The notes under the pieces are model-generated. The model did not search any database. It was given only the letters and a program-made list of their open reading frames with translations, and had not been told where the DNA came from. DNA of 64,000 bases from an uncultured Clostridia bacterium. Lineage in GTDB: Bacteria > Bacillota > Clostridia > TANB77 > CAG-508. Positions 4,844-52,535 of this stretch are shown here, piece after piece. Made by a program: the position numbers and the translations under genes. The stretch spans positions 4,179 to 68,178 of the forward strand of contig CALXFC010000001.1 of the NCBI GenBank assembly GCA_944387485.1, in the 5' to 3' direction. The stretch's first letter is position 1; each line of letters begins with the position of its first letter.

Positions 4844-4977
4844 AAACTAGTTAGTTCTTAGAGTTTACAAATTAAAATTACAAAGTAATTATAACAATAA
4901 TTTTTAATATTTACAAATTTATAAAAAATTAAGAAAATATAAATTGTTTTTCTATTCAAGTATTGTTATAATATTGT

Positions 4978-5733
4978 ATGATAGATAAAAACAAAGGGGT
5001 TATAAAAGTGAATGGAGATAAGAAAAAATATAAAACATTAAAAATAGCAGTATTAATAGTTGCAATTTTACTTTTAATTGCTTTAACAATATATTTATTT
5101 CCAATGGCAAAAAAATTATTTAATCCTCAAGGAAGGGAAGTATTTAAAGAAGAGATACAATCATCTGGTTTTACTGGAATACTCATATTATTAGGATTAC
5201 AAGGAGTGCAAATATTACTTCCAATACTTCCAGGAGAGCCAATAGAAATACTAGCAGGGATGTGCTATGGACCAATTGGTGGATTTATATTTTTAATGAT
5301 ATCAGTATTTCTGATAACGTCGTTAATATTTTTTGCAGTAAGGAAATTAGGAAGAAGTTTTGTGTATGGTGTGTGTAGCGAGGAAAAAATAAAAAAATTA
5401 GAGAATAGCAAATTACTTAAAAATTCCAAAAAAGTAGAATATATAATGTTAATATTATTTTTAATTCCTGGAACACCAAAAGATTTATTAGTATATATAG
5501 GCGGATTACTTCCAATAAAACCGTTAAGATTTATATTAATATCAACATTTGCAAGAATACCATCTATGATATCATCTACAGTTGCGGGTTCTAGTATAGT
5601 AGAAGGAAATTGGAAGTTTGGAGTAATATTATATGTATTAACATTTTTATTAGTTGGAATAGTAGTTTTTATTGCAGAAAAAAGAGATAAAAGTAAGTTA
5701 ACAAAAGAAATAATAGATAATGTGAGACAATAG
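4978..5733 (+). CDS. TVP38/TMEM64 (DedA/SNARE-associated) family membrane protein
   Basis: Multi-TM 251-aa protein with the PGTPKDLLVYIGGL motif typical of the family. Confidence 0.65.
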   Translation: MIDKNKGVIKVNGDKKKYKTLKIAVLIVAILLLIALTIYLFPMAKKLFNPQGREVFKEEIQSSGFTGILILLGLQGVQILLPILPGEPIEILAGMCYGPIGGFIFLMISVFLITSLIFFAVRKLGRSFVYGVCSEEKIKKLENSKLLKNSKKVEYIMLILFLIPGTPKDLLVYIGGLLPIKPLRFILISTFARIPSMISSTVAGSSIVEGNWKFGVILYVLTFLLVGIVVFIAEKRDKSKLTKEIIDNVRQ

Positions 5734-11524: not shown

Positions 11525-12428
11525 ATGGAAGAATTTAAATCAGGTTTTGTAACTTTAATTGGAAGAACAAATGTAGGAAAATCAACTTTAATTAATTTAC
11601 TAGTTGGCGAAAAAGTTGCAGCAATTGCAAATAAAGTGCAAACAACAAGAACTGCAATTAGAGGAATAGTAAATAGAGAAAATTCACAAATAATATTTAC
11701 AGATACACCAGGAATCCATAAACCTAGAACTAAATTAAGTGAGACTATGTTAGATACTTCGTATACAAGTTTAAAAGATGCAGATTTAGTGCTGTTTTTA
11801 ATTGAAGCTACAAGTGATGAAATAGGTAGAGGAGATAGAAGAATATTAGAAAAAATAAAGGAAGATAAAGCAAAAACAATTTTAATTATAAATAAGATTG
11901 ATTTAGTAAAAAAAGAAAAACTTTTAAAATTAATTGATTTATATAGTAAAGAATATGATTTTGAAGCGGTTATTCCAATATCTGCAACTGACTCAAAATA
12001 CAAAGAAATAATTTTAAATGAAATAGAAAAGAACCTAAAACCTCGGTCCTGCATATTATGATAAAGAGGAATATACAGACCAAACAATGAGACAACTAGC
12101 AGAAGAGACTATAAGAGAAAAGGCTTTAAAATTATTACAAGATGAAGTGCCACATGGCATTTATGTTGAAGTAGAAAAAATGAAAGAAAGAAAAAACAAA
12201 AATGGAGAAGATATATATGACATAGAAGCAACAATATATTGCTTAAAAAATTCACATAAAGGAATTATTATTGGAAAAAATGGAGAAATGTTAAAAAGAA
12301 TTGGAAGGCTAGCAAGAATTGATATGGAAGAAAATTTTGGTGTAAAAGTAAATTTAAAAACTTGGGTAAAAGTAAAAGAAGATTGGCAAGATAATAATTC
12401 TATTGTAAAAAAATTTAAATTACAATAA
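11525..12428 (+). CDS. era: GTPase Era, frame broken at in-frame CGG (12044-12046); the 12087..12428 ORF is the KH-domain tail
   Basis: G1 GRTNVGKST, G3 DTPG, G4 NKID. ...EIEKNLKP-R(CGG)-SCIL*. Skipping C12044 gives ...NLKPGPAYYDKEEYTDQTMRQLAEETIREKALKLLQDEVPHG... (conserved Era linker and KH domain). Confidence 0.8.
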
Positions 12429-42581: not shown

Positions 42582-42908
42582 AAAATAATATAAAGTATAA
42601 ATTCTATAATATTTTGAGTTTATACTTTATTTTTTTAATAAATGAAACTAATAAGTAAATTAGAACAAAGAAATTTTAGAAAAGTGAGAAAAAAGAAGAA
42701 AAAGATACATCAATGGAGAAAATATAAGAATTTATACATATAATTAAAGTTTTATGAATTTGTAAATTAAATGTATTAATGTTAGTATCTATGTGGTGAA
42801 TATTTATATTCCAATTTTTCAAAGGGAGGTGAATTAATTATAGATATTCAGCAACTTTGGGAAAAAATACAAGGAGAATTTACTGAAGTTAATACTAGAT
42901 TAGATAGA

Positions 42909-43181
42909 GTGGAAACAAAAGTAGAAAGTATGGATACAAGACTTGGAAATGTAGAAACAGAAGTTAAAGAGGTTAAGTATGAAAACAAAGGAATAAGAGC
43001 AGAACTTACTAAAATAAACCAAAGACTTGATGTTATACAAAATGTTAATTTAGTAAATATTATTGAAAAACAAAATCAAATTATGAAAGAATTAAATTCT
43101 GCTAGTAATATTAATAATTTATATCATGAAAATTTTAAGTATAGGCATGAAAGAGTAGAAAAAGCTTTAGGAATTGCATAA
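42909..43181 (+). CDS. hypothetical coiled-coil protein (true start may be upstream near 42843, non-ATG)
   Basis: In-frame extension IDIQQLWEKIQGEFTEVNTRLDRVETKVESMDTRLGNVE...; AGGGAGGTGA RBS at 42822. Confidence 0.4.
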   Translation: METKVESMDTRLGNVETEVKEVKYENKGIRAELTKINQRLDVIQNVNLVNIIEKQNQIMKELNSASNINNLYHENFKYRHERVEKALGIA

Positions 43182-43225
43182 GAGATATTTTTAAGGAAGT
43201 ACAATTATTGTACTTTCTTTGTTCA
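43180..43225. repeat. direct repeat A (left copy) flanking the Fic cassette; includes a hairpin
   Basis: ATAAGAGATATTTTTAAGGAAGTACAATTATTGTACTTTCTT is near-identical to 44622-44667. Confidence 0.6.
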
Positions 43226-43374
43226 TTAGGAAAAAGAAACACAAGATGAAATAATAAATGAATAGTAAGAGAAGAAAATGGAATAATAGATACAAAGTAT
43301 CGAAAGTAACAATTTTATTTAATATAGCAAACAAAATTATGAAAAAATAATTATAATTAACTGCATATAACATA

Positions 43375-43500
43375 TTAGTTTCTGCATATAAAATTTAAAA
43401 TAATATGCAGAAAATGTTGACTATCTGCATATAAAATGATAAAATATATGCAGATAATATAAGATATATGCATATAAAATCATAAAGCGTATGCAGAAAG
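43375..43500 (+). promoter_or_regulatory. iteron-rich operator/promoter region upstream of fic (at least six copies of CTGCATAT / ATATGCAG half-sites)
   Basis: CTGCATATAAcatattagttTCTGCATATAAAATttaaaataATATGCAGAAAATGTTGACTATCTGCATATAAAATgataaaatATATGCAGAtaatataagatATATGCATATAAAATcataaagcgTATGCAGAAAG; TTGACT-N17-TAAAAT promoter embedded. Confidence 0.55.
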
Positions 43501-43511
43501 AAGGAAATAAA

Positions 43512-44558
43512 ATGAAAAAATTTGATTATTCTTTTCTTGATAATGGTTTACTACCAGCTAATTTAATAAATATAACAGGAGCTATATATACATTAAAAAC
43601 AGGAGCAAAAATAAGAAAAGATGAATATGAAAAAATATTTACAGAATTAGAAAAAATAGCAGTCGTTCAATCTGTAAAAAGTTCAAATGCTATAGAAGGG
43701 ATTGTAACTAGTGATGAACGTATAGAAGAAATAGTAAATCAAAACAGTAAACCATTAAATCATAATGAAAATGAAATTGCAGGTTATCGTGATAGTTTAA
43801 ATGAAATACATTTACATTATCAAGATATTGAATTAAGTGAAAATACAATTTTAAGATTACATGAAATAATGATGTCATATACGGGAGCTGAAGATGCAGG
43901 AAAATATAAAATAAACGAAAACTATATTGTAGAAGAAGATAAAGATGGAAACAGAAAAATGAGATTTAAACCATTAGGTGCAAAAGAAACACCAGAGGCA
44001 ATGAAACAAATTATACTTGCATATCATGATGCAAGTAATAATTCTAATATTAATCAGTTATTATTAATTCCATGTTTTATTCTTGATTTTCTTTGTATAC
44101 ATCCATTTAGGGGCGGCAATGGAAGAATGTCAAGATTATTAACATTGTTATTATTATATAAAAATGGATTTGACGTTGGTAAATATGTTTCGTTTGAAGA
44201 ACAAATAAATAATAATAAAGGAAATTATTATGAAGCTTTAAGACTATCTTCAATTGATTGGATTGAAAATAAAAATACTTATATTCCTTTTATAGAAAAT
44301 TTTCTATCTACTTTATATATTTGTTATAAAGAACTAGATAAAAGGTTTAGTGTTGTAAATAGCAATAAAGTCACAAAAAAAGCAAGAATAGAAGCAATAG
44401 TATTAAATAATTTAACGCCTATTTCCAAAGCTGAAATTTGTAAGATACTACCAGATGTAAGTGCAACAACAGTTGAGGCTGTATTAGGAATAATGGTAAA
44501 AGAAGGAAAAGTGGAAATAATAGGAAAAGGAAGAAATACAAAATATATAAAAAAATAA
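43512..44558 (+). CDS. Fic family protein (AMPylase / adenylyltransferase-like, with C-terminal wHTH)
   Basis: Fic motif HPFRGGNGRMSRLL (HPFx[DE]GNGR). Confidence 0.8.
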   Translation: MKKFDYSFLDNGLLPANLINITGAIYTLKTGAKIRKDEYEKIFTELEKIAVVQSVKSSNAIEGIVTSDERIEEIVNQNSKPLNHNENEIAGYRDSLNEIHLHYQDIELSENTILRLHEIMMSYTGAEDAGKYKINENYIVEEDKDGNRKMRFKPLGAKETPEAMKQIILAYHDASNNSNINQLLLIPCFILDFLCIHPFRGGNGRMSRLLTLLLLYKNGFDVGKYVSFEEQINNNKGNYYEALRLSSIDWIENKNTYIPFIENFLSTLYICYKELDKRFSVVNSNKVTKKARIEAIVLNNLTPISKAEICKILPDVSATTVEAVLGIMVKEGKVEIIGKGRNTKYIKK

Positions 44559-44570
44559 CTTGCACAAATA

Positions 44571-44667
44571 AATACAAGGAGAATTTACTAAAATTAATAG
44601 TAGATGAGATAATTAGAAATTGTATAAGAGATATTTTTAGGGAAGTACAGTTATTGTACTTTCTTAA
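44571..44667. repeat. right-flank partial duplicate of the 42868-43225 gene (5' about 45 nt plus 3' end) including direct repeat A
   Basis: AAATACAAGGAGAATTTACTaAAaTTAATAgTAGATgAGATA...tgtATAAGAGATATTTTTAgGGAAGTACAgTTATTGTACTTTCTT versus 42868... and 43180-43225. Confidence 0.6.
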
Positions 44668-44745
44668 TTTTTGGAAAAACTATTGTAAATATGAATATTA
44701 ACATGTATAATAAAAGTGAATTTAAAATAAGAAGGGATGATTAAT

Positions 44746-45495
44746 ATGGAAGAAAAGGAAAAAGTAGCAAAGAAAGGTAGTAAAAAAATAGTGTTGATTA
44801 TTATAGCAATAATTGTACTTATTTTTTTATTAGCAGCAGGATTTATATTTTATCATGGAAATCAAACAGGCAAGTTAATTTCAGAAGTGAATAAAATAGC
44901 AGAAATGCAAATGATGAACGAAGATGGAAGTATGGTAGAAAATCCAATAGATATGGAAATAAAAACAACAGGTTCATATGCAGTTATAGAAAAAACTTTT
45001 AAAGACTATGTAAGTGAAGTAGTAAATTCTACTAAAGATTTAGCAGAAGCATTAGATGAAGAAAAAATAATGAATTTAGTTTCAATAGAAAATATGCAAC
45101 AAGATGGACCAGATTTTACGAAAAGTAAACAAGAAGTAGAAAATATGAAACAAGCAATAGAAGAATATATAACTAAGTTCCAAGAATATGCAAATGAGGA
45201 TAATCTACTTTCTAAAATAGATGATAAAGATGTAAGTGATTATTATAAAGAATTATATAAAACATTAGCTGTAGATGAAGATATGGAAACAAGTTTAGAA
45301 GATACAGTTCAACAATTAAATACAGCAGGAGAAGAAGCAAAACAAGCTTTAGATGATTTAAATAGTATTTTTAATTTCTTAAGTGAAAATAAAGATGATT
45401 GGCAAATAGAGGATGGACAAATAGTATTTAATACAGAAAGTAGCTATGAAGAATATAATAGTTTAATGTCATCATTAGAGACTATGCAAGAATAA
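44746..45495 (+). CDS. hypothetical N-terminally membrane-anchored acidic protein
   Basis: TM helix KKIVLIIIAIIVLIFLLAAGFIFY followed by an acidic soluble domain. Confidence 0.45.
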   Translation: MEEKEKVAKKGSKKIVLIIIAIIVLIFLLAAGFIFYHGNQTGKLISEVNKIAEMQMMNEDGSMVENPIDMEIKTTGSYAVIEKTFKDYVSEVVNSTKDLAEALDEEKIMNLVSIENMQQDGPDFTKSKQEVENMKQAIEEYITKFQEYANEDNLLSKIDDKDVSDYYKELYKTLAVDEDMETSLEDTVQQLNTAGEEAKQALDDLNSIFNFLSENKDDWQIEDGQIVFNTESSYEEYNSLMSSLETMQE

Positions 45496-45616: not shown

Positions 45617-47527
45617 ATGGATAATCTAAAATTTGGAAGTTTTATTAAAGAATTAAGAAAAGAAAAAAATATGACTCAAAAAGAATTAGCTAAAAAAATA
45701 GGGCTAACAGATAAAGCTATATCTAAATGGGAAAGAGGGTTAAGTTTTCCAGATATAACTATGCTTAATTCACTTGCAGAAGTATTTGATGTAGATGTTT
45801 CAGAAATTTTAAATGGAGAAAGAGGAAAAGAAAAAATAAATAATGAAGATATAGAAAAGAAAATACAAGAAGCGGTAGAAAAAGTTACATTAAAAAAAGA
45901 AAAAAGAGAAAGAAGAATAAAAATACTTAAAAGAACAATAGGAATAATATCATGTGTATTATTTGTATTATCTTTCTTATTACAGTTAGGATATTTAATT
46001 TTCTTAAAGCCACGTTCTTATGTATATGTAAGTGATTTGTTATTTTACATAATAAATGAAATTATAATATTAACATGTTCTTTAATATTTTTTACATTGG
46101 TAAAAATAAAGAAAAATTTTATTAAGAATATTGTAATTTCTATATTACTAGTTATTTTAAGCATTATAAATATAGCATTTATGATAAATAATGGTTTTGA
46201 AAATAAATGGATAGTTGAGTTTTCAAAAGATTTTTCTAGTCAGTTAGTATTAAAGAAAAATAAGAAAACTGGAGAAATTACTTATTATAAAAATACAAAA
46301 GTCTTATTTGCAAAAGATGAAGAAATTTTTTCTAATGAAGTAGAAGGGGCAATAAAAACACAATGGCTTACAAATGATATTTGTTCTATTACATATAAAA
46401 ATAAAGATGGTAACTTAGAAGAATTTGTTGCAACATATGGAGATCGTGGAAATGGTATTTCGTATTATTATGTAACAAATACTATTGTTGGTAATTGGCA
46501 AAATTTTTCACAATATGGAGATGATGTTAAAATTACAGTAGATTCAAAAGGAATTACAATTAAAAAAGATGAAAAAGAAGAATTGTTTAAATTTGAAGAT
46601 TGTAAACAATATGGAACTATTGCAGTAGTATTATATAAAAATGATGTGCCTTGTTATGTAATAGCACTAAATGAAAACTGTGAGTTAGATGAAACAAATG
46701 ATATAATAAAAGACGGTGGAACAATTACACTTGTAGAAGTATCAATGGGAAGAACAAAAACTGATATCTTAGAGTGTACAAATTATAAAGGAGAAGATTT
46801 AAGTAATTATAATGCTGTAAATGTCAAAGCTAATGATTATAAAATACAAAATGGAATTTTATATATTAGCTATGATGGAAAAAATGTAATAGAAGTTCCA
46901 GGAGATTTTTCAGATGTAGATGAATTTGAAGATGGAACATACCAAGTAGAAGAAGAAAAAACATTTTTTACATACAAGGATAATAATGAAGAATATTTAA
47001 TATATTCAGATGATAAAGGAGTAAATTGGAATACAATAAAATTAGGAAATACTTCTGTTCAAGTTATGCAATTTTTAAATACTAATATAGGATATATGTT
47101 GGAATTTAAAGATGTAGCTATGGGAATAGCTTTTGGTGATATTAGTAAAACAACAGACGGAGGAAAGACGTGGCAAGTGGTATTTAATGGAATTGGAGAT
47201 AGTGAAGAAAAAGTATTTAGTAGAGGAAGTAAAATAAGATTTTTTGATGAAAACTTAGGATTTTTAACTATGCCAAATGCAGGTGGAGAAACTTCAGAAT
47301 TGTATATTACAAAAGATGGAGGAATAACTTTTACAAGAATGAATGTACAACAAACAGAAGAAGAAAGAGATATTTATGACTATTATGAATTACCAGAAAA
47401 AGAAGATGATGGAACATTAACTTTAGAAGTTGGACAAGGTAGTAATGGTGATTATAATGGTGGAAAAAGTAAGATATATGTATCAAATGATAATGCAAAT
47501 ACTTGGGAGTTTAAAGGAGAAGAATAA
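45617..47527 (+). CDS. XRE-family HTH, TM segments, then an extracytoplasmic BNR/sialidase-like beta-propeller domain (membrane-anchored transcription-factor-like)
   Basis: HTH MTQKELAKKIGLTDKAISKWERGLSFP; 3-4 TM helices; BNR-like repeats TTDGGKTWQ, TKDGGITFT, SNDNANTWE. Confidence 0.6.
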   Translation: MDNLKFGSFIKELRKEKNMTQKELAKKIGLTDKAISKWERGLSFPDITMLNSLAEVFDVDVSEILNGERGKEKINNEDIEKKIQEAVEKVTLKKEKRERRIKILKRTIGIISCVLFVLSFLLQLGYLIFLKPRSYVYVSDLLFYIINEIIILTCSLIFFTLVKIKKNFIKNIVISILLVILSIINIAFMINNGFENKWIVEFSKDFSSQLVLKKNKKTGEITYYKNTKVLFAKDEEIFSNEVEGAIKTQWLTNDICSITYKNKDGNLEEFVATYGDRGNGISYYYVTNTIVGNWQNFSQYGDDVKITVDSKGITIKKDEKEELFKFEDCKQYGTIAVVLYKNDVPCYVIALNENCELDETNDIIKDGGTITLVEVSMGRTKTDILECTNYKGEDLSNYNAVNVKANDYKIQNGILYISYDGKNVIEVPGDFSDVDEFEDGTYQVEEEKTFFTYKDNNEEYLIYSDDKGVNWNTIKLGNTSVQVMQFLNTNIGYMLEFKDVAMGIAFGDISKTTDGGKTWQVVFNGIGDSEEKVFSRGSKIRFFDENLGFLTMPNAGGETSELYITKDGGITFTRMNVQQTEEERDIYDYYELPEKEDDGTLTLEVGQGSNGDYNGGKSKIYVSNDNANTWEFKGEE

Positions 47528-47844
47528 TGTATTATGTTTATATGTTAAGATGCAAAGATAATACTATTTACACAGGAATTACAGTAGATATAAAAAGAAG
47601 GATGGAAGAACATTTTTCTAAAAATGAGAAATGTGCTAAATATACCTACACTCATACTGCTAAAAAATTAGAAGCGGTATGGGAATGTAGAAATAAATCT
47701 TTAGCATCTAAACTAGAATATGTAATAAAAAGATTAACGAAACAAAATAAAGAAGAACTAATTAAAACAAAAAGTTTAGATAAAGTATTTTACGGTAATG
47801 AAAAAATAGATATTGAAGAATATAAATACTGTTTTTTGAAATAA
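47527..47844 (+). CDS. GIY-YIG nuclease superfamily protein (UPF0213-like)
   Basis: YYVYMLRCKDNTIYTGITVDIKRRMEEH (GIY...YIG...R...E). Confidence 0.7.
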   Translation: MYYVYMLRCKDNTIYTGITVDIKRRMEEHFSKNEKCAKYTYTHTAKKLEAVWECRNKSLASKLEYVIKRLTKQNKEELIKTKSLDKVFYGNEKIDIEEYKYCFLK

Positions 47845-47970
47845 TAGATAATTCAAATAAATATTTATCTATAGATATCAACACAATAATTTCAAACTAA
47901 TATTAAACATTCAAAATACAAAAATTATGTAAAGTACCACAAAAAATAATAGATTTTTTGTTGGAAAATG

Positions 47971-48000
47971 TTGACAAATAGTAATAAAAAGGTCTATAAT
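47971..48000 (+). promoter_or_regulatory. sigma-A-type promoter of tracrRNA (TTGACA-N18-TATAAT)
   Basis: TTGACAaatagtaataaaaaggtcTATAAT; predicted TSS about 48007. Confidence 0.6.
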
Positions 48001-48007
48001 AAAAATG

Positions 48008-48132
48008 TACAGGGAAGTACAAAATTATATCATATCAAAGTAGAATAGGTTATTACAATAAGACCTGGATTTTATTGTAAAATCTATGAGTCGTAAAGCT
48101 CTAGCTGCCGTCATAGGCAGCTATCTTCATAT
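48008..48132 (+). ncRNA. tracrRNA: tracrRNA of the type II-C system (anti-repeat 48026-48061, nexus and stem-loops to about 48130)
   Basis: ATTATATCATATCAAAGTAGAATAGGTTATTACAAT pairs antiparallel with the minus-strand-sense crRNA repeat at 34 of 36 positions (including G-U pairs) with a 2-nt internal mismatch. Followed by AAGACCTGG... and hairpin GCTGCCgtcataGGCAGC, parallel to the N. meningitidis tracrRNA (ACAAUAAGGCCGUC...AACGCUCUGCCCC). Confidence 0.65.
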
Positions 48133-48146
48133 AAGGAGGAATTAAT

Positions 48147-51100
48147 ATGGGGTACAGAATAGGGTTAGATATTGGAATAACATCAACAGGTTGGTCAGTA
48201 GTAGAAGATGATGCAGAAGGAAAACCAATAAGGATAATTGATTTAGGTTCCAGAATATTTGATGCAGCAGAGAAACCAAAAGATGGTTCACCACTTGCAA
48301 AAGATAGAAGAGATGCAAGAGGATTAAGAAGAAGGGGAAGACGTAAGAAACATAGAATAGAAAGAACTAAAAGATTATTAAATAATTATAATATAATAAG
48401 TAAAAAAGAGTTGGAAAAAATGTATGAAGATTATAAATTCCAATTTAATATATATGAATTAAGAGTTATGGCTCTAGATCAAAAAATAACTAATAAAGAT
48501 TTAGCTAGGGTTTTATTGAATTTTGTTAAAAGAAGAGGATACAAGTCAAATAGTAAATCTGAAGAATCAGAAAATAAAGAAGCGGGAAAATTACTAACAG
48601 CTACTAAAGAAAATGAAAAACTTATGGAAGAAAAAGGCTATCGTACAATAGGAGAAATGTACCTAAAAGATGATAAGTTTAAATTAAAAGACAAAAATGG
48701 TGATTTTATTTTAGATTCAAAAGGACACAAGATATTAAAGGTAAGAAATACAACAGATGATTATAAAAGTACCGCACTTAGAAAATTACTTTTAGAAGAA
48801 ATTGAAAAAATATTAAATAAACAAAAAGAATTTAATTCTGCTATAACAGATGAATTTATTGAAAAATATATTAATATATTCTTATCTCAAAGAAGTTTTG
48901 ATGAAGGACCAGGAAGTCAAAGTCCGTATGCAGGAAATCAAATAGAGAAAATGCTTGGAAATTGTACTTTTGAAAAAGAAGAAAAGAGAGCTCCAAAAGC
49001 TACATATACATTCGAGTATTTTAAATTATTACAAGATTTGAATCATATAAAAATAGAAAAAACAGAATTAGATGATAATAAATCAAGGAAAAGAACAAAA
49101 AGAGAATTAACAGAAGATGAAAAACAAAAAATAATAGAATTGGTAAAAGATAAAGCAACTGTTACATATGATGCTATAAGAAAAGTATTAAATTTAGGAA
49201 CAAATGAGAGATTTAATATGCTTACATATAAGAATACATTGATATTATCAGAAGAAACTAATAAGGAAGTTGAGAAAGATAATAAATTAAAAGAATTTGA
49301 AAGCTATCATAAAATAAAAACAGCATTAAATAGAGTTGAAAAAAATTATATAAACAAATTAACAAAAGAAGAACTAAACAGTATTGGATATGCACTAACT
49401 GTTTATAAAAACGATAATAAAAGAATAGAGTACTTGAAGGAAAATACTGAACATCTATCTGATGAAGCAATAAACGAATTGCTTAAATTATCTTTCACAA
49501 AAGTTGGAAATTTATCTATTAAAGCTATGGAAAAGATTATTCCTCATTTGGAAAAAGGACTTACTTATGATAAAGCTGTTGATGAAGAATATGAAGATTT
49601 TAGAGGAAGTGTAAATACAGAAAAGAAGAGAAAATTACGTTTGAAAGATTTAGAACAAGATATATCTAATCCAGTTGTTAGAAGAGGGCTTTCACAAGCT
49701 GTAAAAGTTTTAAATGCTATTACTTTAAAATACAATAAAAAATATGGAAAGCCAGATGTAGTTGTAATAGAGCTTGCAAGAGATATGGGCAAAAATTTTG
49801 CGGATAGAAATAAAATTAGAAAATCTCAAGAAGAAAATATGCAAAAAAATGAAAAAGTAAAAGAAAGAATAATTGAATTAGGAAAGACAAATCCAACAGG
49901 ACAAGATATTGTCAAGTATAAATTATGGCAAGAGCAAGATGGATTTTGTGTTTATTCAGGTAAAAAAATATCAGTTGAAGATTTATTTACAGAAGCAGTT
50001 GATGTTGACCATATAATCCCATATAGTATGTGCTTTGATGATACATATAAAAATAAAGTGTTGGTACTTTCAAGTGAAAATAGACAAAAGGGAAATAGAG
50101 TTCCATATCAATACGAAAAAGAAATTGGAAGAAATTTAGAAGAATATGAAGTAAGAGTAAATAATATTATAAAAAATCCAAGAAAGAGAGATAGACTTTT
50201 AAAAGAAAGTTTTACTAGAGAAGATGCTAAAGAATGGAAAGATAGAAATATTCAAGATACTCAGTATATATGTAGACTTATGTATAATTTAGTAAGAAAT
50301 CATTTAGAGTTTTCAGATAATCCTAATTTCGTAAGAAAAGTTTGGACAGTTAATGGTTCTGTTACAGCACATATAAGAAAAAGATTAGGTATAGATAAAA
50401 CAAGAGATAATGACGTACATCATGCAATAGATGCGACTGTTATTGCTATAACAAGTCAAGATATGATTAATAAAATAACAAAATATTATCAATATGTAGA
50501 TGGAAAATATATGAATAACAAAGGAGAGTATATAGATTTAGAGACAGGCGAAATTTTAGATGCTAAGAAGTATGAAGAAGATAATGGAATATATTTCCCA
50601 GAACCATGGCATAATTTTAGAAAAGAACTTGATATAAGGGTAAATTGTAAAACAAAAGAAAGAATTATTGAATGTTTAGAAGCTGAAAAAATCTATACAT
50701 ATGAAGATTATGATGATGTAAGACCAATTTTTGTATCAAGGATGCCTAGAAGAAAAGTTACAGGAATGGCACATTTAGAGACAATTAGAGGACTAAAAAC
50801 AGAGGATGGAAAGCTAAAAACTATAACAAAAACCGAATTAACTAAATTAAAGTTAAAAAATGGCGAAATTGAAGGCTATCCAGAAAAGAATAAGAAAGAT
50901 GATAAACTACTATATAATGCGTTAAAAGAACAATTGATAAAATATAATGGAGATGCAAAAGAAGCATTTAAGGAAGATTTTTATAAACCTAGAAAAGATG
51001 GAAGTAGAGGACCTTTGGTTAAAAAAGTTCAAATAGAGGCAAATGCAACGTTAGGTGTACAATTAAATCATAGTAAAGCTTTTGCAGGAAATGGTAATAG

Positions 51101-51548
51101 TGTAAGAATAGATATATTTTATGTAAAAGGAGAAGGATATTACTTTGTACCAATATATGTCAGTGATACAGTAAAAGATAAGTTGCCAAACAAAGCATGT
51201 GTCCAAGGGAAACCATATGATAAATGGAAAGAAATGAAAGATGAAGATTTTATATTTTCACTATATCCTAAAGATTTAATTTATATAGAAGGGAAAAATA
51301 AAATTAAATTAAATCCAAGTAATAAAATAGGTGATTCTATTGAAATGGATAATTTATTTGCATACTATACTAAATGTGACATATCTTCAGCACAAATAAC
51401 AATTCAAACAGATGATAATAGATATGTTCAACCAAGTTTAGGAATAAAGACATTGAAAAAGATAAGAAAGTATGAGGTTGATGTTTTAGGGCAATATCAT
51501 GAAATTAAGTTGCCAGAAAAAAGAATGCCTTTTAACATAAAAAAGTAA
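48147..51548 (+). CDS. cas9: Cas9 (type II-C size, 1133 aa)
   Basis: RuvC-I MGYRIGLDIGITSTGWSVV; Arg-rich bridge helix RRGRRKKHRIERTKRLL; HNH DVDHIIPYS...NKVLVLSSENRQKGNRVPY; RuvC-III HHAIDATVIAI. AAGGAGG RBS. Confidence 0.95.
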   Translation: MGYRIGLDIGITSTGWSVVEDDAEGKPIRIIDLGSRIFDAAEKPKDGSPLAKDRRDARGLRRRGRRKKHRIERTKRLLNNYNIISKKELEKMYEDYKFQFNIYELRVMALDQKITNKDLARVLLNFVKRRGYKSNSKSEESENKEAGKLLTATKENEKLMEEKGYRTIGEMYLKDDKFKLKDKNGDFILDSKGHKILKVRNTTDDYKSTALRKLLLEEIEKILNKQKEFNSAITDEFIEKYINIFLSQRSFDEGPGSQSPYAGNQIEKMLGNCTFEKEEKRAPKATYTFEYFKLLQDLNHIKIEKTELDDNKSRKRTKRELTEDEKQKIIELVKDKATVTYDAIRKVLNLGTNERFNMLTYKNTLILSEETNKEVEKDNKLKEFESYHKIKTALNRVEKNYINKLTKEELNSIGYALTVYKNDNKRIEYLKENTEHLSDEAINELLKLSFTKVGNLSIKAMEKIIPHLEKGLTYDKAVDEEYEDFRGSVNTEKKRKLRLKDLEQDISNPVVRRGLSQAVKVLNAITLKYNKKYGKPDVVVIELARDMGKNFADRNKIRKSQEENMQKNEKVKERIIELGKTNPTGQDIVKYKLWQEQDGFCVYSGKKISVEDLFTEAVDVDHIIPYSMCFDDTYKNKVLVLSSENRQKGNRVPYQYEKEIGRNLEEYEVRVNNIIKNPRKRDRLLKESFTREDAKEWKDRNIQDTQYICRLMYNLVRNHLEFSDNPNFVRKVWTVNGSVTAHIRKRLGIDKTRDNDVHHAIDATVIAITSQDMINKITKYYQYVDGKYMNNKGEYIDLETGEILDAKKYEEDNGIYFPEPWHNFRKELDIRVNCKTKERIIECLEAEKIYTYEDYDDVRPIFVSRMPRRKVTGMAHLETIRGLKTEDGKLKTITKTELTKLKLKNGEIEGYPEKNKKDDKLLYNALKEQLIKYNGDAKEAFKEDFYKPRKDGSRGPLVKKVQIEANATLGVQLNHSKAFAGNGNSVRIDIFYVKGEGYYFVPIYVSDTVKDKLPNKACVQGKPYDKWKEMKDEDFIFSLYPKDLIYIEGKNKIKLNPSNKIGDSIEMDNLFAYYTKCDISSAQITIQTDDNRYVQPSLGIKTLKKIRKYEVDVLGQYHEIKLPEKRMPFNIKK

Positions 51549-51635
51549 AAGGAAAGGAGGGAAGCTTAGATATTTATCTTAAAACTCATCTATAGTCTAA
51601 ACTTAGAATATAGATAAATGTTTTAAGCGAATATT

Positions 51636-52535
51636 ATGGCTTTCAGGAATGTTTATGTGCAAAATGATGTACATATAAAAATTAAAAATGAGCAACTATT
51701 GCTTGAAACAAAAGATGATGATTTTACAATACCTTTAGAGGACATCAACAGCATTTGTATAGAATCACTAAGGACAAATATTTCTTCTTATGCATTAAAA
51801 AAGTTTGTAGAACACGATATAATTTTATATATATGTGATGAAAAACATTTACCTACTGGATTTTTGATAGGTAGCAACAACTACTCTAGACAATTAAAAA
51901 ATTTGAACATGCAATTTAATATGCCTAAACCTCTTATGAAAAGAATATGGCAAGACATTATAAGAATAAAAGTAAGGAATCAATCAGAATGTCTAAAAGA
52001 ATTAGGAATTAAAGATATAAAATTAGATAATATGATTGATAAAATAACTTCTGGGGATACAAAAAATGTAGAAGCGAAAGCAGCTTCTCAATACTTTAGA
52101 GATTTGTTTGGAAAAGATTTTAATAGAGATTTAGATTGTGTTCAAAATGGAGCATTGAATTATGGATATGCGATTATAAGAGGGATGATTGCTAGAACTT
52201 TAGTTATGTATGGATTTGAACCAGCAATAGGGATATTTCATCACAGTCAATTAAATAATTTTAACTTAGCTGATGATTTTATAGAATGTTTTAGACCAAT
52301 AGTTGATTTATATGTTTTACAAACTTTAAATTTTGATACTGAAGAATTAACACCTAGTATGAAAAGAAAAATTTACAGTGTTATTAATTGTTTGGTTTTA
52401 ATTGATGGTAAAAAATTTAATGTTCAAGGGGCAATAGATTATATGATAAAAAGTTTTTCAACAAGTATGAATGAAAATAAGAATTTAATTAAATTGCCCT
52501 ATTTGATACCAATAGAAGAGTATAGGTATGCATAA
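51636..52535 (+). CDS. cas1: CRISPR-associated endonuclease Cas1 (type II)
   Basis: 299 aa, MAFRNVYVQND...; position and size typical of type II Cas1. Confidence 0.85.
   Translation: MAFRNVYVQNDVHIKIKNEQLLLETKDDDFTIPLEDINSICIESLRTNISSYALKKFVEHDIILYICDEKHLPTGFLIGSNNYSRQLKNLNMQFNMPKPLMKRIWQDIIRIKVRNQSECLKELGIKDIKLDNMIDKITSGDTKNVEAKAASQYFRDLFGKDFNRDLDCVQNGALNYGYAIIRGMIARTLVMYGFEPAIGIFHHSQLNNFNLADDFIECFRPIVDLYVLQTLNFDTEELTPSMKRKIYSVINCLVLIDGKKFNVQGAIDYMIKSFSTSMNENKNLIKLPYLIPIEEYRYA

Follow-up and report, generated by a model that had tools for sequence, protein, structure and literature searches.

The fic gene (positions 43512 to 44558, forward strand) of a 64,000-nucleotide stretch of DNA from an uncultured Clostridia bacterium (contig CALXFC010000001.1; the whole stretch is hereafter the window) is in all likelihood part of a horizontally acquired and self-contained module, in which a class II Fic protein with a winged helix represses its own gene, and which was inserted beside a resident coiled-coil gene, cc. 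The window is AT-rich throughout. The genes at the locus follow in the order argS, cc, fic, a remnant of cc, a gene for a protein of 249 residues in this species (called start at 44746) and a gene of the HTH_3 family. The fic product has 348 residues and matches the Pfam family Fic (PF02661) with 53.5 bits against a cutoff of 24; an identical product is called on public contigs, and the closest species-level matches come from the metagenome-assembled genome (MAG) of an uncultured Clostridium sp. (92%) and from Clostridium sp. CAG:465 (86%). The ribosome-binding site GAAGGAA occupies 43500-43506 and the real start codon lies at 43512, while the ATG at 43491 listed by an open reading frame (ORF) finder sits within an operator.

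The cc gene (42840-43181, forward strand, 113 codons) is identified as the resident flanking gene from its translation and its collinearity with cc at loci that lack fic. Four cc lineages (P0133, P0127, P0137, P0122) display argS, a single cc, a gene for a protein of 250-253 residues and the HTH_3 gene, with no fic; the four cc members looked up show 59-83% identity. Because these four sister lineages present the empty site, the placement of fic as an insertion relative to related lineages is well supported by sequence comparison. The collinearity holds on both sides: upstream, positions 4916-5381 of the locus L026 correspond to 42757-43218 of the window (the left cc with its 5' side) and, downstream, positions 5350-5600 correspond to 44631-44863 (the terminator of the remnant with its 3' side). 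Among the contigs of the same species no empty site is found, and all those with the exact ArgS or the 249-residue protein carry cc, fic and the remnant. The original prediction that fic was inserted is thus borne out, by an empty site in sister species only.

The module is bracketed by direct repeats that derive from cc. The 5' segment of the left copy (42862-42906, forward strand, 45 nt, within cc) is 89% identical to 44567-44611 (E 7e-10). The 3' segment of the left copy (43167-43235, forward strand) includes the end of cc, a terminator hairpin at 43193-43219 and about 15 nt more, and matches 44613-44679: the 53 nt of 43167-43219 are 92% identical to 44613-44665, and gapped blastn lengthens the pair to 43235 and 44679 (69 nt, 87%, E 6e-17). 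The right copy is a cc remnant (44567-44679, forward strand), delimited by the repeats, its stop codons, a terminator scan and the collinearity with the empty site, in which the 5' 45 nt are fused to the 3' end and to a terminator at 44637-44667. The 260 nt equivalent to 42907-43166 are missing, and the remnant is non-coding and full of stop codons in the cc frame. Repeat search and blastn therefore agree with the earlier claim of flanking direct repeats, whose limits had been placed slightly off, the 5' pair being about 2 nt out of register; the reading of the right copy as an internally deleted cc duplicate stands, with both of its ends matched. The region contains three terminator-like sites against 0.2 expected. 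The hairpin is kept in both copies, and that of the remnant appears now to serve as the end of the fic transcript. Past 43235, the similarity between 43236-43300 and 44680-44770 is not significant, 81 of 1000 shuffles scoring equally, and a longer duplication that reaches the start of the 250-residue gene was rejected on this ground. The left repeat is separated from the point where homology with other fic loci begins by a spacer (43236-43284), which matches neither the right flank nor the empty site significantly.

In the proposed course of events, a block of about 1.33 kb (43236-44566) would have entered between cc and the 250-residue gene in this species only, and, as a result of the insertion event, at least 374 nt of cc (42862-43235) would be present twice. 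Subsequently, the promoterless downstream copy would have lost 260 nt and decayed. The right copy begins no more than 9 nt past the fic stop codon, with no promoter or ribosome-binding site of its own and without the first seven codons, and this proximity favours duplication and insertion in a single event, for example the crossover of a circle that carried a cc fragment, or a homology-assisted illegitimate joining. On the other hand, the tandem duplication of cc could be older, fic having landed later between the two copies by chance, so that the insertion did not cause the duplication. The cc copies differ by about 10% and the strains by less than 1%, which indicates that the duplication is not recent, and the repeat-rich cc gene, the length of which varies in 42-nt steps, seems prone to recombination. 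However, two cc copies occur in none of the four related lineages, and a right copy that starts so close to the fic stop codon with its 5' parts missing fits a junction made by the insertion event; an older duplication is thus rather unlikely.

Fic homologues at 84-93% identity are very common in Clostridia MAGs, where their neighbourhoods are unrelated (Wzz/fic/UPF0158, hpf../fic/SASP, LytTR/fic/SASP, greA/fic and the loci L035-L038). Across at least eight unrelated contexts, the nucleotide homology with the window sets in at a point from 43285 to 43454, within an array of operators or just upstream of it, and stops at 44554-44558, the stop codon. The recurring unit therefore consists of the operators, the promoter and the ORF, and no other gene travels with fic in the contexts compared. 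The upstream part of the imported module (43285-43380, forward strand) shows about 90% nucleotide homology to L035 from 43285 onwards. It contains an AT-rich inverted repeat at about 43311-43338 (self-inverted blast match 43309-43340) and an orphan half-site CTGCATAT at 43361-43368. No repeats are common to both limits of the module; the duplication consists instead of at least 374 nt of host sequence.

The hosts of the homologues include Lachnospiraceae, Oscillospiraceae, Bacteroidaceae, Spirochaetia, Synergistaceae, Succinivibrio, Endomicrobium, Desulfovibrionaceae, Actinomycetes and Eggerthellaceae, and distant homologues (38-43%) are present in 203 plasmid records and two phage records. 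Two archaeal MAGs also encode homologues: L090 4001-5044 (Methanocorpusculum, 54%) and L106 4001-5059 (Methanomethylophilaceae, 48%). Both are preceded by two palindromes, CTGCAyAT..ATGTGCAG and TTGCATAT..ATATGCAA. The neighbours in L090 are cofE (F420 gamma-glutamyl ligase), a His_biosynth-family gene and a thymidylate kinase gene, and the vicinity of cofE in the Methanocorpusculum contig means that the assignment is not obviously a binning error. The archaeal copies suggest that the gene has crossed between domains and taken its operators along. As a separate observation, L035, L038 and L089 have a common motif, AATATTGATACTCTTAA, 150-300 nt upstream of fic, and L038 and L089 share an inverted repeat, ATTACGAAAAA..TTCGTAAT, near fic (downstream in L038). 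The motif and the inverted repeat may be what is left of a larger carrier element, one that the window lacks.

The operator array is formed by three tandem 43-nt units at 43381-43509 (Tandem Repeats Finder: period 43, 2.8 copies). Each unit holds the palindrome CTGCATAT-N13-ATATGCAG, the third with one mismatch in each half-site. Seven half-sites are present in total, counting the two degenerate ones of the third unit. The window contains 11 copies of the half-site CTGCATAT, where 2.6 are expected, a count that none of 100 shuffles attains, and five of the 11 copies fall in 43361-43453. The distal predicted operator (43382-43410) and the promoter-embedded one (43425-43453) are perfect. The third (43468-43496), ATGCATAT-N13-GTATGCAG, is predicted in the leader and adjoins the ribosome-binding site. 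The predicted fic promoter (43417-43445, forward strand) consists of TTGACT (43417-43422), a 17-nt spacer and TAAAAT (43440-43445) with an upstream TG, and with 10 of 12 positions it is the joint-best match on its strand. The middle palindrome takes up the spacer of the promoter together with its -10 box and the transcription start site, which is predicted near 43452. An array that overlaps the promoter had been proposed before, and it is confirmed here as TTGACT-17-TGnTAAAAT with an embedded palindrome. The same layout is conserved in other contexts and is standard for the subfamily, so that the region loses the unusual character first ascribed to it; the third tandem unit alone is particular to the clade. 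That unit is missing in L006 and L015 and found in L020, L022 and L035, and it appears to arise by duplication of the 43-bp unit, variable within the clade. An RNA element in the leader was also considered and rejected: the segment 43452-43530 folds no better than shuffles (z -0.42), and the promoter-embedded palindrome straddles the start site and hence forms no hairpin in the transcript.

The conservation of the operators was surveyed with a family profile against one genome per species, which gives 80 loci at 43-92% amino acid identity. Upstream palindromes were counted in the 77 loci with enough upstream sequence, with at most one mismatch per half and within 130 nt of the start codon, and 8192 windows taken from the same loci served as control. 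The palindrome CTGCATAT-N13/14-ATATGCAG is present in 59 of the 77 loci, at the site equivalent to the promoter-embedded operator, against 2 of the 8192 control windows. The spacer measures 13 or 14 nt, never another length, two copies are found in 35 loci and the proximal copy ends 14-16 nt 5' of the ATG in 37. Of the 77 upstream regions, 41 contain a perfect 9-nt inverted repeat (9/9), as compared with 4 of 1540 shuffles. The loci typically read TTGAyt-tCTGCATAT-aa.atg.TAtAAT-tATATGCAG-AAAGGAGG.

The Fic protein's C-terminal portion is the likely cognate repressor. An AlphaFold2 model built from 36 diverse homologues has a mean predicted local distance difference test (pLDDT) score of 92.3, with block means of 84-95 over residues 291-348. 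Helices 289-299, 306-312 and 318-330, followed by strands 334-337 and 344-347, form a winged helix-turn-helix in the model. This winged-helix region (44376-44552, forward strand), with helix 318-330 as the predicted recognition helix, is delimited by the model, by Foldseek and by the covariation of the helix with the operator. Foldseek aligns the protein over its full length with SoFic (3EQX), CbFic2 (8CIL) and CccR (7XUX), and gives a probability of 1.00 to many Fic structures.

The palindrome changes together with this helix. A helix of the form S-x-T-T-[VI]-E-A pairs with CTGCATAT, and in L108 and L110, at 49% overall identity, both the helix S-V-T-T-I-E-A and CTGCATAT are kept. At about 50% identity, the helix S-x-K-T-[VI]-E-L (L092, L096, L098, L101, L102) is accompanied by the palindrome TTTACTACCTAAA...TTTAGGTAGTAAA, also written CTACCTAAA..TTTAGGTAG, at the same promoter position. 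Helices that end in E-R (L103, L105) pair with TACTGCATCA...TGATGCAGTA. A host-encoded regulator does not explain why the operator accompanies a single gene from phylum to phylum and differs when the helix of that gene's product differs. The original prediction saw an operator array with no cognate repressor in the window, but with operators that travel with fic and covary with its recognition helix the winged helix of Fic is the likely cognate.

The proposed mechanism is the following. With its two winged helices, the Fic dimer would bind the CTGCATAT-N13-ATATGCAG palindromes. The centres of the half-sites lie about 21 bp from each other, which would correspond to about 71 Angstrom and lies near the 70.2 Angstrom of the CccR dimer helices. 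The occupation of 43425-43453, from just past the -35 box to the start site, would block RNA polymerase and keep the level of Fic low and steady. The distal and leader operators, 43 bp to either side, could add cooperativity; 43 bp amounts to about four helical turns, which places the operators on the same face of the DNA. The leader site, by the ribosome-binding site, might in addition be a roadblock. Catalysis would be held off separately, by the inhibitory glutamate E62. If the autorepression holds, the change of CTGCATAT to CTCGATAT is predicted to abolish binding.

The palindromes might instead serve a repressor encoded elsewhere in the host, the Fic protein itself binding no DNA. The binding of DNA by Fic is here a prediction, the 64-kb window is part of a genome in which the regulator could lie farther off, and a 636-residue HTH_3 protein is encoded 1 kb downstream of fic. 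Nevertheless, many bacterial phyla and a methanogen contig have the same palindrome beside fic, the operator region and the ORF being all that is common to the unrelated neighbourhoods, and the palindrome changes along with the recognition helix of Fic. The empty-site lineages, which have neither fic nor operators, also possess the HTH_3 gene, and the window contains no second operator beyond a match with one mismatch in era; a host repressor is therefore very unlikely. That match (12049-12078, in the era coding region) is the one other full-palindrome match in 64 kb, and a host regulon was rejected as the lone near-operator lies within a gene. The MMR_HSR1 GTPase part (11525-12061) and the KH domain (12087-12428), which would belong to one Era protein, fall in separate ORFs in different frames; this suggests a frameshift, due either to a pseudogene or to an assembly error, and the near-operator at the junction of the two ORFs is probably a chance occurrence.

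A role of the repeats as sites for the recombination or mobility of a gene cassette (attC, transposon ends), rather than as operators, would suit a module that occurs at many genomic sites with sharp limits, 43-bp units that vary in number between close relatives and the junction with a different upstream gene (greA) inside the array of L006, but it is hardly credible, given that the repeats stand on one side of fic only with the stop codon as the other limit, that no recombinase gene of the kind expected for an insertion sequence, transposon or integron cassette (integrase, transposase, integron context) adjoins fic in any context examined, and that the proximal palindrome keeps a fixed register with the -35 box, the -10 box and the ribosome-binding site, as an operator does and a recombination site does not. 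The contig L006 (positions 1-830), which resembles those of the same species, places greA and its terminator directly 5' of a fic promoter with two operators. Its ribosome-binding site differs and three substitutions fall in the first 33 codons, and from 43424 on it matches the window at 98%, cc remnant included. L006 is either a recombinant of two fic alleles or a chimeric metagenome assembly.

Among solved structures, the Fic protein has its nearest relative in 8UQU, from Bordetella bronchiseptica (E 2.8e-67, residues 44-348). The inhibitory-helix motif S58-N-A-I-E62-G63 (43683-43700, forward strand) fits (S/T)xxxE(G/N), aligns with SSNRLEG of 8UQU and lies 139 residues N-terminal of H197, in a helix of the model (residues 40-61). 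Among 120 close Fic homologues, which define the counts of motif conservation, SNAIEG is kept in 118. An inhibitory motif on the same chain and N-terminal of the core makes this protein, by its sequence, a class II Fic. The statement that the toxin has neither antitoxin nor inhibitory helix consequently falls. A conserved small ORF downstream of fic is absent, the homology between contexts ending at the stop codon, and in place of the adjacent small antitoxin gene of the two-gene Fic toxin-antitoxin systems stands the non-coding cc remnant. The cc protein was considered as partner or antitoxin of Fic and rejected, for four lineages have cc but no fic, and everywhere else fic is found with no cc. 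The two puzzles of an orphan operator and an uninhibited toxin would thus dissolve, the repressor and the inhibitor being both parts of Fic.

The Fic signature motif of the window, HPFRGGNGRMSR (44100-44135, forward strand), differs from that of the family at codon 201 (44112-44114), where GGC (Gly) replaces GAC (Asp). The family motif HPFRDGNGR is present in 115 of the 120 homologues, and the HPFRGGNGR first taken for it is a D201G variant that segregates among strains: codon 201 is GAC in seven contigs of the same species (L003, L004, L005, L010, L011, L012, L014) and GGC in the window and five others (L001, L002, L006, L007, L013). The acidic residue of the motif helps to hold the Mg2+ of the nucleotide. 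It is included in the signature HxFx(D/E)GNGRxxR (PMC3667792, PMC2686095), in which the window allele has Gly at the D/E position. With the acidic residue lost, the catalysis of this allele is expected to be impaired, and the D201G allele is probably one in which the enzyme is crippled and the repressor part intact. The gene is accordingly assigned to the Fic family by homology, and its present allele is not put forward as that of a proven AMPylase. The polymorphism may serve as a natural experiment that separates the repressor role from the enzyme role.

The protein is most likely, by analogy, a self-repressing class II Fic with a winged helix of the CccR/SoFic type, which is a known design and no new class. 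CccR of Yersinia pseudotuberculosis (YPK_0951, 7XUX) is a class II Fic with a C-terminal helix-turn-helix that forms a dimer and represses its own promoter, as demonstrated by reporter fusions, electrophoretic mobility shift assays, footprinting and isothermal titration calorimetry (PMC9755527). Its operator, AGATAATCAT-N26-ATGATAATCT, is located near the -35 and -10 boxes, and its DNA-binding helices are 70.2 Angstrom apart (PMC9755527). The two proteins share the Fic core with the C-terminal helix-turn-helix, an inhibitory motif at nearly the same residue number (S59ARIEG in CccR and S58NAIEG here), and a single-gene organization with an inverted repeat at the gene's own -35 and -10 boxes, here 43425-43453 within the promoter 43417-43445. 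On the other hand, CccR is secreted by a type VI secretion system and encoded in a cluster of its effectors, nothing of the kind lying near fic here, the identity is about 17% in the structural alignment, and the present allele carries D201G.

SoFic of Shewanella oneidensis (SO_4266, 3EQX) contains the N-terminal helix, the inhibitory helix, the Fic core and the winged helix in the same order as the protein of the window. The dimeric SoFic binds the 100 bp that precede its own start codon, and SoFic AMPylates EF-Tu (bioRxiv 10.64898/2026.07.09.737422). The PADLOC model for SoFic as a single-gene anti-phage system (PDLC03963) matches residues 47-347 (E 1.3e-31), and the sole hint of phage defence in the context is a strain-variable type II CRISPR-Cas locus that begins 3.6 kb 3' of fic. 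An E. coli homologue of SoFic has a 47-residue antitoxin, AS1, encoded downstream (PMC12249575); in contrast, fic here has no conserved small ORF of this type. The activity of CbFic2 is stimulated by DNA binding (PMC10628234). The structure 8UQU has the inhibitory motif at the same position and the same C-terminal region in sequence, whereas its motif is the canonical HPFPDGNGR and its crystal resolves the N-terminal domain only; no paper on 8UQU was found in the literature. The class I FicTA systems (VbhT/VbhA, EcFicT/A) also hold a Fic toxin inactive by an (S/T)xxxE(G/N) helix and are transcriptionally autoregulated, selfish or defence-like modules. Their inhibitory helix and DNA binding reside, however, in a separate antitoxin, while here a single polypeptide would combine them and there is no partner gene.

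Several points weigh against a self-repressing, inserted module of this type. At the fic insertion there are no recombinase, terminal repeats or short target duplication. The CccR operator has 10-bp arms and a 26-bp spacer, as opposed to CTGCATAT-N13-ATATGCAG in three tandem copies here, and the sequence similarity to CccR is weak (phmmer E 7.7e-5, Fic core only). The NCBIfam equivalog model of SoFic (NF046030) scores 34.7 bits against a cutoff of 550, so far below that the enzymatic target of SoFic, EF-Tu, is not transferable; the protein is, by sequence, a relative of SoFic and not an ortholog. The canonical palindrome is missing in 18 of the 77 loci, some of which have another palindrome and a few none. 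Moreover, the covariation amounts to about five or six operator types, each probably of one clade, and hence to few independent events. Autorepression is still the most likely behaviour, on the grounds of operator co-transfer, helix covariation and analogy.

A broader view is more tentative. The unit of about 1.2 kb, formed by the operators, the promoter and the gene of the Fic protein with its winged helix-turn-helix, may amount to a minimal, self-regulating module able to pass from one phylum to another, even into methanogens, with a readable recognition code and with D201G as a drift to a pure DNA-binding protein. This possibility would mean that the module can move as one piece because its own repressor-operator pair comes along, that the code includes such pairs as T-T-x-E-A with CTGCATAT and K-T-x-E-L with CTACCTAAA, and that alleles like D201G display the passage from a toxin or defence enzyme to a pure DNA-binding protein. 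The interest that remains in a known design lies in the very wide spread with operators included, the helix-operator covariation and the segregating D201G. Experiments on autoregulating Fic proteins so far rest on CccR and on the SoFic preprint. For a much larger subfamily, which is abundant in gut Clostridia, the present locus and those related to it offer an operator of sharp definition, its exact promoter register and naturally occurring variants of helix and operator, so that binding and specificity experiments are directly designable. The empty and filled sites also indicate that a single-gene module enters the chromosome with no visible mobility gene.

The cc family is small and lineage-specific, with 25 clusters. 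It has no Pfam match above the cutoff, and generic coiled-coil profiles only below it. The cc protein measures 113, 127 or 141 residues among the homologues L026 5001-5342, L031 5001-5384 and L115 4001-4426. The steps in length correspond to extra internal repeats of 42 nt (14 residues, VETKV.SMDTRLGN), so the gene expands and contracts in repeat units. The start codon of cc in the window is ATA, with a G to A change at 42842 relative to L004, L010 and L012, which have ATG. The ATA is also found in L001, L003, L011 and L013, where 83 residues are called, as compared with 113 in the ATG sister strains. The start is thus polymorphic among strains, and the ATA either abolishes the start codon or leaves a rare start of the ATA type.

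Downstream of the module, positions 45617-47527 encode the 636-residue protein, with an N-terminal Cro/C1-type helix-turn-helix, membrane segments and a C-terminal BNR/sortilin-like region. This HTH_3 gene adjoins the 250-residue gene in all related lineages, whether fic is present or not. It is followed by the type II CRISPR-Cas locus (47826-55565), with Cas9 at 48147-51548, cas1 at 51636-52535, cas2 at 52528-52848 and an array at 52948-55489 of about 38 repeats with a period of 66 nt. The block of 7.7 kb varies among strains: L004 and L010, more than 99% identical to the window on either side, are without it and carry a gene for an Ltp-family lipoprotein in its place.

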